A program made the position numbers and the translations under genes. A stretch of DNA of 64,000 nucleotides, taken from positions 173,540-237,539 of the forward strand of contig CAWAUM010000013.1 in the NCBI GenBank assembly GCA_963785235.1, written 5' to 3'. Shown in pieces: positions 4,467-43,123 of this stretch (position 1 is its first letter; the number at the start of each line of letters is the position of its first letter). Source of the DNA: an uncultured delta proteobacterium. GTDB lineage: Bacteria > Desulfobacterota > Desulfomonilia > UBA1062. Below the pieces are notes generated by a model. That model had not been told where the DNA came from, did no database searches, and saw nothing but the letters and a program-made list of their open reading frames with translations.

Positions 4467-4676
4467 TCCGGATATTGCGCTTAAGATGAGTAAAAACCTT
4501 TTTCCGTTCAAAACCTTTATCTTGCAGCCTGGTGAGGGATGCAGAATTTATTGGTCCTTCAAGGCTGCAAGATAAAGGTTTTGAACGGACCTATAAAAAA
4601 TAATACCATGGTCATAATGAGTTATATGCTTAAGTACATGGAGCATGTGCGGGTACATTCAACTGCAATATCCGGA
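4467..4676. mobile_element. MITE-like element, copy A (contains a 28-bp hairpin)
   Basis: 12-bp perfect TIR TCCGGATATTGC/GCAATATCCGGA; 5-bp flanking direct repeat TTTAT (4462-4466, 4677-4681); homologous to 22096-22202. Confidence 0.75.
4503..4589. repeat. 28-bp perfect inverted repeat with 31-nt loop
   Basis: TCCGTTCAAAACCTTTATCTTGCAGCCT (4503-4530) and its reverse complement (4562-4589); second copy at 16394-16478. Confidence 0.92.
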
Positions 4677-13124: not shown

Positions 13125-13165
13125 GTTTTATGCCTGATTGTCACTTTCTCAATCTTTCAAGACCA

Positions 13166-13200
13166 TAGGTTGGGTTTCGTTTTCACTCAACCCAACCTAC
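13166..13200 (-). repeat. GTAG-type REP palindrome
   Basis: Minus strand GTAGGTTGGGTTGAGTGAAAACGAAACCCAACCTA, 11-bp arms, just downstream of typA. Confidence 0.65.
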
Positions 13201-13217
13201 AGTTACTTCTTGCCGCT

Positions 13218-16357: not shown

Positions 16358-16493
16358 CCCGGATTTTGCATTCTAAGACTTGCAAAAACTTGATCCGTTC
16401 AAATCCTTTATCTTGCAGCCTTTGTGCAGTGCTGATTAATACGGTCCTAGAGGCTGCAAGATAAAGGATTTGAACGGACCTGTTAAAAAACAA
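16358..16493. mobile_element. MITE-like element, copy C (left end plus 28-bp hairpin at 16394-16478; right end degenerate or absent)
   Basis: CCCGGATTTTGC left end; perfect 28-bp arms with a compensatory A-T to T-A change relative to copy A. Confidence 0.7.
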
Positions 16494-30093: not shown

Positions 30094-30471
30094 GGTTGAA
30101 GGAGTGCAGGTAATCGCTGGCGCCTTCCAAGGCGCGAGAGGAAAGTCCGGGCTCCGCAGGGCAAGGGTGGTCGCTAACAACGACCGGGGGTGACCCCAGG
30201 GAAAGTGCAACAGAAAACAAACCGCTGCCCTTAAAAGGCAGTAAGGGTGAAACGGCGAGGTAAGAGCTCACCAGTTCCCCGGGTGACCGGGGAAGCTTGG
30301 CAAACCCCACCCGGAGCAAGGCCAATAGAGGGGCTTTCAAGGGCTGCCCGTCCTGCCCCTGGGTAGGTCGCTTGAGGTAGCAGGCAACTGTTATCCTAGA
30401 TGAATGATTACCACCCGGATCACGGCAACGTGGCCCGGGCTACAAAACCCGGCTTACGCACTGCTTCAGCC
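30094..30471 (+). ncRNA. rnpB: RNase P RNA, class A
   Basis: GAGGAAAGTCCGGGCTCC, AGTGCAACAGAAA, GGTAAGAGCTCACC, CTAGATGAATGA, ACAAAACCCGGCTTA; 5' and 3' ends pair (P1). Confidence 0.97.
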
Positions 30472-41025: not shown

Positions 41026-41637
41026 ATGGGTAAGAAAAAGGGAATAATTTCTGATGCTATTCTGGTGAAAGATATCAAACATGGCAACGCAGCCGCCATG
41101 GAGGAGATAGTGAGGAGATATTCGAACAAGGTGTATAATCTCGCATACCATCTCACCCGTGATGCATCTGCCGCCGAAGAGATCATGCAGGAGGTCTTCC
41201 TCACCGTAATAGCAAAGATCAATACGCTCACCAATGACGCATACTTTTCCACCTGGCTCTACCGAGTAGCCACAAATGCCTCTTACGGCTTCCTCCGCAA
41301 AGAGAAAAAATTCACCGAACAGACCACCATTGAAGAGATCGACCAGGAGCCGTCTCAGGATTACGAGTACGACTGGTCGACGCTGCCGGACGATATTCTC
41401 CTGTCCGAGGAAAGCAGGACCATCCTCCAGGGCTCCATCGACTCGCTGCCCGAGGCCATGAGGACCGTGGTCATCATGAAGGATGTGGAAGGATTCTCCA
41501 ATGAAGAGATCGCACAGTCCTTAGGCGTAAGCGTCCCTGCAGTCAAATCCAGGCTGCATCGGGGACGGCTTATCCTGAGGGATGTCCTGTACGGCTATTT
41601 CAGGAAATATACACAACCTGAAGGAGAAGGCGCATGA
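41026..41637 (+). CDS. ECF sigma-70 factor
   Basis: AEEIMQEVF, FSTWLYRVA, GFSNEEIA..LG..VPAVKSRLHRGR. Confidence 0.93.
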   Translation: MGKKKGIISDAILVKDIKHGNAAAMEEIVRRYSNKVYNLAYHLTRDASAAEEIMQEVFLTVIAKINTLTNDAYFSTWLYRVATNASYGFLRKEKKFTEQTTIEEIDQEPSQDYEYDWSTLPDDILLSEESRTILQGSIDSLPEAMRTVVIMKDVEGFSNEEIAQSLGVSVPAVKSRLHRGRLILRDVLYGYFRKYTQPEGEGA

Positions 41638-41873
41638 AATGTATAGTCTGTTCCTCCTTATTCCAGGATTATTTGGAGAACAACCTCTCCCAGGACGTCA
41701 TCGATGAGATGAACGCTAATTTTAAGATCTGTGAAAAGTGCAAGATCTGCTTCAAGACCTACTCACTCACCATCGAGCTCTCTCATAAGATCAAACAGCC
41801 ATGCTGCGTAAGCCCTGAGGTTGTGGACAAGCTGAGACAGATGCTCATTGAAAGGTTCTTCACCGTCAGGTAA
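41634..41873 (+). CDS. Putative zinc-finger anti-sigma factor (79 aa)
   Basis: Overlaps the sigma stop (ATGA); MKC...DYLE..L.....xxxxCEKC layout typical of zf-HC2 domains. Confidence 0.7.
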   Translation: MKCIVCSSLFQDYLENNLSQDVIDEMNANFKICEKCKICFKTYSLTIELSHKIKQPCCVSPEVVDKLRQMLIERFFTVR

Positions 41874-42040
41874 GGCTGCATCGTTTACTTTGAGTTGGTA
41901 ATTATCGCGAGGCATCCATTGTTTATCCAAGTTTTTCGCTTAATAAACGGGATAATCCGTTAAATCAGTCATCTCAAAGCCTTTGGAGAATGATAATAGC
42001 TTATAGTATTTTGTTACTTCATCAGCGTCATCGACGAGTA

Positions 42041-42272
42041 TAGATTATGTTTTGAACTATTCAACATCACTAAAGGATTGCTCCTGGCACAGGATCATCA
42101 CTTTCTCAGGACGTGAGGGAGTGATGATTTTATTGCAAGATCATCAGTTTTCAGCCAGCTTAAAAATAGAGTAGAATATTCGCAGATCATCGGTTCTGAG
42201 ACATTCTGAAACCAACTCATCTATTGCATTATCATCACTGTAGACAATATGAATAGTTTTGAACATAATCTA
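42041..42272. repeat. Inverted-repeat-bounded array of four about 46-nt units; candidate structured ncRNA or MITE
   Basis: 23-bp IR at 42041-42063/42250-42272; ATCATC cores at 42094, 42140, 42186 and 42231. Confidence 0.6.
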
Positions 42273-42311
42273 CGATTTTCTGGCATCTTAAATTCATAGT
42301 AAGGAAATCGG

Positions 42312-43046
42312 TTACATCACTGCTAGGAGACGCTTTGCCTCACCTACGTAGTATTTGTCACTGGAGCTTGCTGCCTTCTGGAGCAGGGCCTTGGCTTCGT
42401 CCTTGCTGCCTGTTTTCATAAGTGCTTCTCCCAGAAATACCAGCCCCTCCGGGTCATTGGGGAACGACTTCTGAAATTCCCTCAAATACTTGAGTGAGAG
42501 CTTCTTGTCCTGCAGCGGCCAGGGCAGCACGAACCAGAAGCGCCCCAAGGCCTTGATGGGCCCGCCGTCATAATACATCTTGTTCACCTGATAGGCTTTT
42601 TCAAATGAGCTCTGGGTCTTGTCCTTCAGCCCTTCCGCCAGCGCGGTGAGGATGCTTACACCATCAGAGTAGTTGCCCACCGAGAATCCATACCAGCAGT
42701 TCCCCTCAACTCCGTTTCCATTCAATGCGATGGCCTTTTCACCGTATTTCATGCCGAGCTTGCCGTATTCCTTGCAGACAGCCTTCCAGTCAGGGGTATT
42801 CCTTTTCTTGGATTCATTGGCAAACTCCCGGTATGACCGGGCCGCCTTCCATGCAGCCTCGTAACTTGCCGGATTCGCATCCAGGGCCTTCACAAACATA
42901 TCACCAGCGAGCTTGTAGCTCTCAAAACTCACCTTGCCCTTTTCATAGAGGGCATTGCCCTGGGCCATGAAATCTTCGGCCGCAAGGGCCAGAGGTAGAA
43001 CGAATACTACACATAGGCATACCGCAATCGCTAAAACTCTCTTCAT
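42312..43046 (-). CDS. Exported TPR-like protein
   Basis: Signal peptide MKRVLAIAV...ALA; TPR-like helices (YEAAWKAAR, KAIALN, ALGRFWFVLPWP). Confidence 0.75.
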   Translation of the reverse strand: MKRVLAIAVCLCVVFVLPLALAAEDFMAQGNALYEKGKVSFESYKLAGDMFVKALDANPASYEAAWKAARSYREFANESKKRNTPDWKAVCKEYGKLGMKYGEKAIALNGNGVEGNCWYGFSVGNYSDGVSILTALAEGLKDKTQSSFEKAYQVNKMYYDGGPIKALGRFWFVLPWPLQDKKLSLKYLREFQKSFPNDPEGLVFLGEALMKTGSKDEAKALLQKAASSSDKYYVGEAKRLLAVM

Positions 43047-43123
43047 GTCATCTTCTCCTTCATGTTTTTCATTGCCATGCGCTGAGCGCATCATTCACCG
43101 ATAGTTGCTCTGCCCCTAAGACG

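Follow-up and report, generated by a model that had tools for sequence, protein, structure and literature searches.

A probable copy of a lineage-specific mosaic repeat between an ECF sigma factor locus and a convergent TPR gene in an uncultured Desulfomonilia bacterium

The DNA analysed here is a stretch of 64,000 nucleotides (the window) from the genome of an uncultured delta proteobacterium of the class Desulfomonilia. An ECF sigma factor gene and a 79-aa ORF stand to the left of the segment of interest, and a TPR protein gene converges on it from the right (Table 1), so that the segment lies in a gap between convergent gene ends. The 79-aa ORF follows the sigma gene in all 13 loci found in the genus and is therefore considered a real gene, plausibly one for an anti-sigma factor. 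As originally described, the gap is AT-rich and poor in ORFs, with a GC content of 0.35-0.38 against 0.50-0.58 in the flanks and no ORF longer than 40 aa. It holds a 23-nt inverted repeat (42041-42063 and 42250-42272) whose arms pair at 20 of the 23 positions (87% complementary) and differ at three central positions, which agrees with the pairing and the coordinates first reported; the span between the inverted-repeat ends is 232 nt. When the surrounding sequence (41900-42400) was subjected to 300 mononucleotide shuffles, the best 23-nt inverted repeat reached only 14-18 matches, and 18 only once.

Between the arms, ATCATC begins at 42094, 42140, 42186 and 42231 (C13:215633, 215679, 215725 and 215770 in genome coordinates), and these positions bear out the spacings of 46, 46 and 45 nt given in the original prediction, whose quoted minus-strand repeat strings are also correct. 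The hexamer by itself is ordinary, occurring 0.68 times per kb genome-wide. The run of four is unique, as the 3,910,480-bp genome contains no other chain of at least three ATCATC or GATGAT at 40-52 nt. The units of the array are alike in part only, with identities of 100/74/63% over the 27 nt of the stretch labelled D1 and of 75-87% over the 15-16 nt of D2/D3, and Tandem Repeats Finder reported no array in the window segment. A CRISPR array and a type III toxin-antitoxin RNA array were both rejected as candidates: no tandem array was called, the units agree at only 63-87% over 15-27 nt, and the spacers recur elsewhere. The flanking genes, for a sigma factor, the 79-aa ORF and a TPR protein, include no adjacent type III toxin gene.

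A genome search with 41930-42310 gave 18 BLAST matches, each covering only part of the query, and the same picture of partial matches emerged from local blastn and from nhmmer (30 matches at E up to 1). Modules were then defined by iterated nhmmer models, under names coined in the present analysis, which yielded 18 matches for T, 21 for B, 20 for C, 9 for D and 23 for X in the same genome. Merged, they form a family of 59 regions of 31-253 nt each, 5,479 nt in total, of which only one is longer than the window copy (236 nt). The BLASTN comparison proposed with the original prediction thus uncovers many genomic copies. All but one of the 59 regions lie outside ORFs of at least 100 aa; ORFs called in this crude way take up 84% of the genome. 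The gaps that hold the regions (30 tandem, 14 convergent and 10 divergent) are distributed near background, and the orientation of the copies relative to neighbouring genes is inconsistent. The regions are clustered, occupying 28 of 84 bins of 50 kb with up to 8 regions in a bin. Most copies carry one T module only, and copies other than that of the window have one to three ATCATC-type motifs, whatever genes surround them. In exact form the 8-mers TAGATTAT and ATAATCTA occur 34 and 39 times, which is no excess over shuffled 8-mers (12-118 times), and exact TAGATTAT...ATAATCTA pairs less than 400 nt apart occur only three times in the genome.

The window copy has the order T-B-unit 2-C-D (Table 1). 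The internal modules open with a common short motif, TTGCA-NN-ATCATC, while successive modules differ in type; it is this motif at the module starts that produces the 46-nt periodicity. Likewise, the 23-nt inverted repeat results from a T module inverted at both ends, since the right arm, at the end of D, is the T module reversed. In accordance with this, the T model matches the places of D on the opposite strand at C12:16105 and C3:498283, and T modules of the genome, C13:215579-215635 in the window copy among them, occur in both orientations. The arms of the B hairpin are ATCATCAC...GTGATGAT, and the module includes the first ATCATC together with the start of unit 2. The best match of the C model is the window copy itself (C13:215717-215767). 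Since the U module on the left is common to other copies, the repeat unit runs beyond the inverted repeat: from 41999 to 42075 or 42148 the window resembles C1:515686, C9:14344 and C3:314395 at 74-76%, and copies in the related genomes G003, G004, G005 and G011 at 76-86%. On the right, 42222-42292 resembles C12:16155-16086 (81%) and C5:543405-543475 (77%). The X module, of about 110 nt, is missing from the window copy; at other sites it adjoins these same modules, B, C, D and T. A further, unrelated palindromic repeat has left a decayed half in the junction DNA to the left, at about 41955-41993 (Z model, C13:215494-215532, E 1.5e-4).

Table 1. Genes, modules and further features discussed in the text (positions of the window unless a contig is given).
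Feature	Coordinates	Strand	Remarks
ECF sigma factor	41026-41637	+	left neighbour of the element
79-aa ORF	41634-41873	+	conserved; no Pfam match
Junction DNA	41874-41998		between the synteny end (41880) and the family modules
U, left flank module	41999-42040	+	outside the inverted repeat; common to other family copies
T (terminal) module	42040-42096	+	57 nt; first 23 nt are the left inverted-repeat arm
B module	42088-42143	+	18-bp hairpin at ~42091-42131, then TTTTATT and the ATTGCA junction
Unit 2	42126-42171	+	second ATCATC; missing from two-unit variants
C module	42178-42228	+	third ATCATC; small GGTT...AACC hairpin
D module	42223-42275	+	fourth ATCATC; ends in the right inverted-repeat arm
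Right tail past the inverted repeat	42273-42292	+	common to some copies
TPR protein	42312-43094	-	convergent right neighbour of the element
205-aa tyrosine recombinase	C5:581505-582122		PF00589 at 1e-39; Xer-like catalytic part, without N-terminal domain
Region with elements between colinear blocks	C9:9000-19000		3/3, in comparison with five relatives
Region with elements between colinear blocks	C5:539000-557000		4/4, in comparison with five relatives
Region with elements between colinear blocks	C1:508000-523000		1/1, in comparison with five relatives
Region with elements between colinear blocks	C11:181000-196000		1/1, in comparison with five relatives

The number of modules, in units of about 46 nt, differs between copies and between populations at apparently the same locus. 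In the copies G002:C9:88133-88227 and G004:C17:80976-81080, B is joined straight to D, and the 91 nt of units 2 and 3 are skipped. A contig of 1,331 nt from sequencing run X2 is identical to 41879-42137 (no difference in 259 nt), after which a D-type module follows directly on ATTGCA and unit 2 is missing; 41883-42108 is matched, again with no difference, by a contig of run X3. In other populations, then, the left part is the same and the array is shorter and ends differently. Run X1 contains in addition the junction of the closest relative, in which the putative anti-sigma gene is followed by other DNA, as well as a third junction after 41902. Within the genome itself, the duplicated blocks C9:14738-17009 and C7:301932-304141 have the same right part of an element and different left modules. 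Because module number varies between populations, the element may be useful as a locus for strain typing.

The original prediction had proposed a guide array or a protein sponge, built on box D/box C-like motifs in the manner of the D'/C' K-loops of archaeal C/D RNAs and read from the minus strand. The likeness itself is there, as the layout CUGA-short loop-UGAUGA occurs on the minus strand in two of the four units of the window copy. However, at gathering level the Rfam scan that had been suggested returns nothing at the element (its only match in the window is an RNase P RNA elsewhere), and a permissive scan of 41850-42350 gives eight noise matches to C/D-box and miRNA models, all with E of at least 0.42. 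The C/D models score 10.4-16.7 bits against gathering thresholds of 40-75 (E 0.42-8.4), the best of them reaching 16.7 bits against a gathering score of 75 at E 0.42. As for the partner protein, the original prediction had recognised no L7Ae gene in the window, and the wider search for PF01248 extends this to the whole genome (93% complete), with no match where the same search was positive in 7 of 14 control genomes. Furthermore, CTGA-N3-9-TGATGA is found in only 6 of the 59 family regions (7 matches, two of them in the window copy) against 185 occurrences genome-wide, so the motif is not a conserved part of the family. The "spacers" that would have served as guides are not unique, as they recur as modules elsewhere in the genome, and the strongest hairpin of the element pairs better on the plus strand. 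An archaeal-type guide array or K-turn sponge is thus close to refuted and can be given hardly any weight. The case also carries a caution, namely that strings resembling C/D boxes arise by chance in AT-rich repeats.

A different kind of RNA, read from the plus strand, was considered as well: a family of cis-acting elements or small RNAs that would provide a protein sponge, processing sites or hairpins for termination or attenuation. On either strand the fold of the whole element is more stable than that of its shuffles (plus strand, z -3.7 at -68.8 kcal/mol; minus strand, z -3.4 at -66.2 kcal/mol), which would be expected of any palindromic repeat bounded by inverted repeats. In the window copy, the B hairpin favours the plus strand (-23.0 kcal/mol, z -6.8, against -15.4 kcal/mol on the minus strand), where alone its G-U pairs arise, and behind it comes TTTTATT, some 220 nt past the stop codon of the 79-aa ORF. 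Effects on transcripts have also been reported for the BOX, ERIC and Correia elements (PMC3049150). Against a selected RNA, the hairpin is strong (z of -5 or lower) only in the window copy and at C13:26983 and lies at about shuffle level in most of some 17 copies; RNAalifold finds no consensus structure in the alignments of B, T and D, and only weak ones for C and X. Such loss across copies is the pattern of palindromes that decay without selection. The inconsistent orientation to neighbouring genes, the lack of a call for the B hairpin in a terminator scan and the lack of an Rfam match point the same way, and a family of functional RNAs is considered unlikely. Locally, the B hairpin and the U-run after it may, from their sequence, incidentally terminate a sigma/anti-sigma operon on the plus strand. 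With regard to transcripts, two RNA runs contained about 4% of the sampled words, and run X24 covers only 42511-42547, inside the TPR gene.

A phased operator array had also been suggested, in which a DNA-binding protein would recognise TTGCA-NN-ATCATC, present in five direct copies and one inverted copy. That module starts across the family carry the motif, that a run of four at this spacing is unique in the genome and that the AT-rich gap contains 7 promoter-like sites where shuffles predict 1.5 would all agree with such a role. Yet the genes on either side of the array converge and leave no promoter there in need of control, other copies with their one to three motifs occur in any gene context, and no regulator is consistently adjacent. 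The spacing of 46 bp, moreover, is not a whole number of helical turns, which also counts against an operator array. Regulation of this type is very unlikely at the window locus.

Colinearity with all five compared relatives (95%, 90% and 77-78% identity) stops at 41877-41880, just past the stop codon of the 79-aa ORF, and the window copy begins about 120 nt beyond this breakpoint. In G011, G002 and G008 the next genes correspond to those at C1:832890 downward in the present genome, and in G003 and G004 they match C1:654070. C1:832890, now the site of the ancestral neighbour, has a related element (TAGATTAT...ATAATCTA) about 150 nt long. To the right of the element the window resembles the relatives at 70-84% only. 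The TPR gene, of which C10:65523 holds a second copy, is a paralogue and shares synteny with none of the 15 loci in relatives; therefore there is no orthologous intergenic region to compare. When the four other regions in Table 1 are included, each of the 10 elements examined occupies a gap that separates colinear blocks, a count that refers to regions picked for holding elements and stands without a matched control of element-free intergenic gaps. Where uninterrupted ancestral sites are seen, the present genome carries multi-gene insertions of 6.7, 4.9 and 1.9 kb, and the elements sit within these insertions or at their inner junctions, with no target duplication. None of 17 copies in relatives has both flanks colinear in the present genome. 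The family is multi-copy, intergenic and AT-rich, clustered in variable regions and placed between blocks that are colinear with relatives. It can serve as a marker of variable DNA and of break points in the assemblies of this uncultured group.

Among the four guesses of the original prediction, a MITE flanked by TA comes closest. The size, coding content, base composition and copy number (232 nt, no ORF longer than 40 aa, GC 0.35-0.38, 59 regions) are those of a MITE, and TA stands at both ends of the three complete copies. These dinucleotides are, however, part of the palindromic ends, with no longer duplication, and similarity between copies passes the inverted repeat by 42 nt on the left and 20 nt on the right. 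Many copies together with empty-site alleles had been named beforehand as the signature of a plain MITE: the copies are there, while empty sites of the bare element were not found, the empty sites that do exist being those of multi-gene insertions of 1.9-6.7 kb. No DDE_3/IS630-type transposase (PF13358) was matched in the genome, neither of its two Y1 transposase genes has a family or Z module close by, and it yielded no larger element with these ends. Among the exact end pairs and the T-model matches, no inward-facing pair has a gene within it. Membership among MITEs is therefore not demonstrated, given that an empty site, a target duplication and a parent transposase were all looked for and not found. 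Features of an inverton were examined in the same way. The inverted repeat is present, none of the 8 neighbouring ORFs is a recombinase, the contigs of four runs (which drop rare forms) contain no strand-changing joints, and every copy that extends across the left arm keeps one orientation beyond it.

A possible link to recombination was found elsewhere in the genome, in a gene for a small tyrosine recombinase of 205 aa. Its catalytic part matches XerD at 3e-39 and XerC at 2e-38, and models of tyrosine-type DNA invertases at 4e-22. Both in the present genome and in G011, whose protein shows 93% identity, the gene lies between two inverted T modules with their tips inward. Homology between the two loci begins at the inner end of the left T and ends about 100 nt before the right T; what they have in common is the left T module, the recombinase gene and a small ORF, while the flanks outside are unrelated. 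At C13:68207-68305 the C-terminal part of the recombinase gene survives as a remnant, 46 nt from an X module, and one of the insertions ends in an ORF with a sub-threshold likeness to an integrase N-terminal domain (19.8 bits, below the cut-off of 22.3).

These observations, along with the position of 10 of 10 examined elements between colinear blocks, would agree with the modules being recombination sites, or arms of such sites, for a small Xer-like tyrosine recombinase, by which the bounded gene blocks would be integrated, exchanged or inverted, in the manner of dif modules, shufflons or attC-bounded cassettes. The mosaic would then be a record of past crossovers, and the block-edge position and the T-flanked recombinase would fit site-specific recombination better than plain selfish DNA. 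Several results weigh against this. The ends of similarity between copies are not enriched at ATC[AT][AT]C (16.6% within 3 nt, against 15.1% of random covered positions), and module junctions were consequently rejected as crossover points. The contigs show no joints, inversions or deletions, though contigs drop rare forms, and the orientation of elements relative to the blocks is not uniform. A third homologue of the recombinase, in G003, has no module nearby at E <0.01, and G002 and G004, which contain many elements, gave no close homologue when searched with the protein of the present genome. Furthermore, the adjacency may be a by-product, because recombinases and repeats both gather in islands. 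A role as recombination sites is accordingly unlikely. The more specific proposal is less probable still, namely that the T tips and TTGCA-NN-ATC[AT][AT]C are half-sites of a chromosomal cassette exchange carried out by an Xer-like recombinase consisting of the catalytic domain only. Blocks of 1-10 kb would on this proposal be inserted, swapped and accreted, in a dif-module- or shufflon-like manner in free-living Desulfomonilia, and the four-unit array of the window would represent spent site arms that have piled up where an acquired segment has its border. If the recombinase link were functional, the family would mark the borders of exchangeable chromosomal gene blocks. To our knowledge, a mechanism that acts at such borders has so far been described mainly for Acinetobacter plasmids and integrons.

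In Acinetobacter plasmids, gene modules are bounded by Xer sites and known as dif modules (for example PMC6449649 and PMC13141974); the likeness to these, and to integron attC sites, is that short repeats border shuffled gene blocks and that an Xer-like gene lies between T modules. The present family differs from these in that no complete two-arm Xer-type site is seen by eye at its ends, no crossover point was found and orientation shows no regular alternation. Integron attC sites were in fact rejected as an identity for the family. A true integron integrase is encoded elsewhere (C12:115401-116339), and neither it nor the neighbouring small-gene array has a family module next to it, the nearest T module being 30 kb off; the lack of modules beside this integrase also argues against a site-specific role of the family.

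The architecture of the family is closest to that of the BOX elements, whose boxB modules are about 45 nt long, and BIME/REP sequences of enterobacteria are likewise mosaics of combined motifs. In BOX elements, boxA and boxC are separated by boxB modules that vary in number, and S. suis has additional end modules (PMC3049150). The BOX elements of S. pneumoniae and S. suis share with the present family an intergenic position, AT-richness, multiple copies, and end modules whose inverted termini enclose short tandem internal modules in varying number. The two are also alike in length variation between strains, alternative end modules in a single genome, predicted stem-loops and the lack of a proved mobilising enzyme (PMC3049150). 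Variation of the BOX type is seen here in the T-B-D or B-D forms of G002:C9, G004:C17 and run X2 and in the alternative left module X. The resemblance is one of architecture only. The present family belongs to a different phylum (Desulfobacterota, class Desulfomonilia). In addition, its internal modules (B, unit 2, C, D) do not repeat a single boxB but differ in type and have only about 15-25 nt in common, its copy number is lower (59 regions), and its tie to variable DNA and block edges is strong. The MITE criteria and the Correia elements and NIMEs of Neisseria are described as well (PMC3049150). Shared with these MITEs are small size, apparent terminal inverted repeats, AT-richness, folding, possible TA ends and mosaic motifs (PMC3049150); the differences lie in the want of a target duplication separable from the palindromic ends, of empty sites and of a cognate transposase, and in similarity that passes the inverted repeat on both sides.

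By analogy, the family would belong with the BOX elements of streptococci and the mosaics of enterobacteria and Neisseria. On this reading there is nothing unusual about the element, which would be an interspersed mosaic repeat specific to its lineage. The likely interpretation of the segment as a whole, held with moderate confidence, is that it represents one long copy of this repeat, selfish or recombinogenic, with at most incidental local effects. Such a repeat would consist of non-coding DNA made up of interchangeable modules of about 46-58 nt, in which T ends are inverted around B, an extra unit, C and D, and it would spread or persist as selfish or recombinogenic DNA. Possible routes are MITE-like transposition in trans, unequal crossing-over between modules and travel at the ends of inserted segments. 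The window copy itself probably has no selected function of its own at its locus.

The family is lineage-specific, being restricted to part of one genus. With 41990-42300 as the query, matches came from 6 of the genus's 14 other genomes, from none of the 10 genomes of other genera in the family and from none of 16 genomes of a second family. Even within the genus its occurrence is uneven, as G008, a complete and fairly close genome whose sigma protein is 92% identical, yielded no copy in any of the searches and was matched by gene blocks only. No match to the family was found in the plasmid and phage collections. In the literature, no paper combining "Desulfomonilia" and "MITE" was found, and among the matches listed for repetitive intergenic elements there is no mention of Desulfomonile. 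A pattern scan of 185,579 species genomes (one per species) with a 21-nt AT-rich motif gave 89 stretches, of which 80 were listed; almost all of these, in Pelagibacteraceae and others, are chance matches to the AT-rich motif. One true family member is among them, in a Desulfomonilia MAG with both T and B modules.

Comparison with the relatives shows that synteny breaks directly after the 79-aa ORF (a plausible anti-sigma gene), from position 41880 of the window onward, with a partner site for this breakpoint on contig C1 of the same genome. Likeness to the relatives is 90-95% to the left of the breakpoint versus 70-84% to its right, where the DNA encodes a paralogous TPR protein, a ferredoxin and an aldehyde:ferredoxin oxidoreductase. 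A large segment, either acquired or rearranged, may have the DNA right of 41880 as one of its sides and, as the other, the family element (a copy of the mosaic repeat) that adjoins a sigma-54 activator gene on C1.

A block of ~2.3 kb, encoding one ORF of 331-333 aa and one of 277 aa, is duplicated on contigs C9 and C7 of this genome (G000); both copies have family elements on either side, and the left modules differ between them. Immediately after another family element lies a sigma-54 activator gene (C5:543505-544266) that is missing its 5′ end, with full-length paralogues at C3:315361-318219 and near C1:833141. Furthermore, inverted T modules, the end modules bearing the inverted-repeat arm, border a small recombinase cassette found in both G000 and the same-genus relative G011, in flanks that are unrelated between the two genomes. 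The cassette contains a 205-aa Xer-like tyrosine recombinase consisting only of the catalytic domain, as well as a 67-aa ORF that is duplicated in G000.

Locations of features in the window, its genome and a relative
Feature	Location	Strand	Score
Partner site of the 41880 breakpoint	G000:C1:832890-833075		
Duplicated block, ~2.3 kb	G000:C9:14738-17009 and C7:301932-304141		
Small recombinase cassette	G000:C5:581251-583092; G011:C7 (L163:1249-2487)		
Palindromic repeat copy	window 4503-4589 = C13:178042-178128		
Palindromic repeat copy	window 16393-16478 = C13:189932-190017		
Palindromic repeat, decayed half	window 41955-41993 = C13:215494-215532		
TAGGTTGGGTT-type repeat matches	window ~13165-13201 (C13:186704-186740); C13:166319-166352		
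RNase P RNA, bacterial class A	window 30098-30471	+	312 bits

The genome also holds a second repeat family, unrelated to the mosaic repeat, whose unit is a near-perfect palindrome of ~87 bp with two arms of 41 nt each. Its 165 half-hits in G000 form 78 inverted pairs distributed over all large contigs. In shape these palindromes are REPIN-like or terminator-like, and neither of the two Y1 transposase genes in G000 lies next to one. The TAGGTTGGGTT-type repeat, represented by short matches (34-37 nt, 92-94%), probably constitutes a third family of small repeats; in the relative G002, it fills the spacer behind the anti-sigma gene.

A true integron integrase is encoded outside the window, at C12:115401-116339, with a score of 464 bits where the cut-off is 265. 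The gene is followed by ~10 kb of small ORFs, which likely constitute a chromosomal cassette array.
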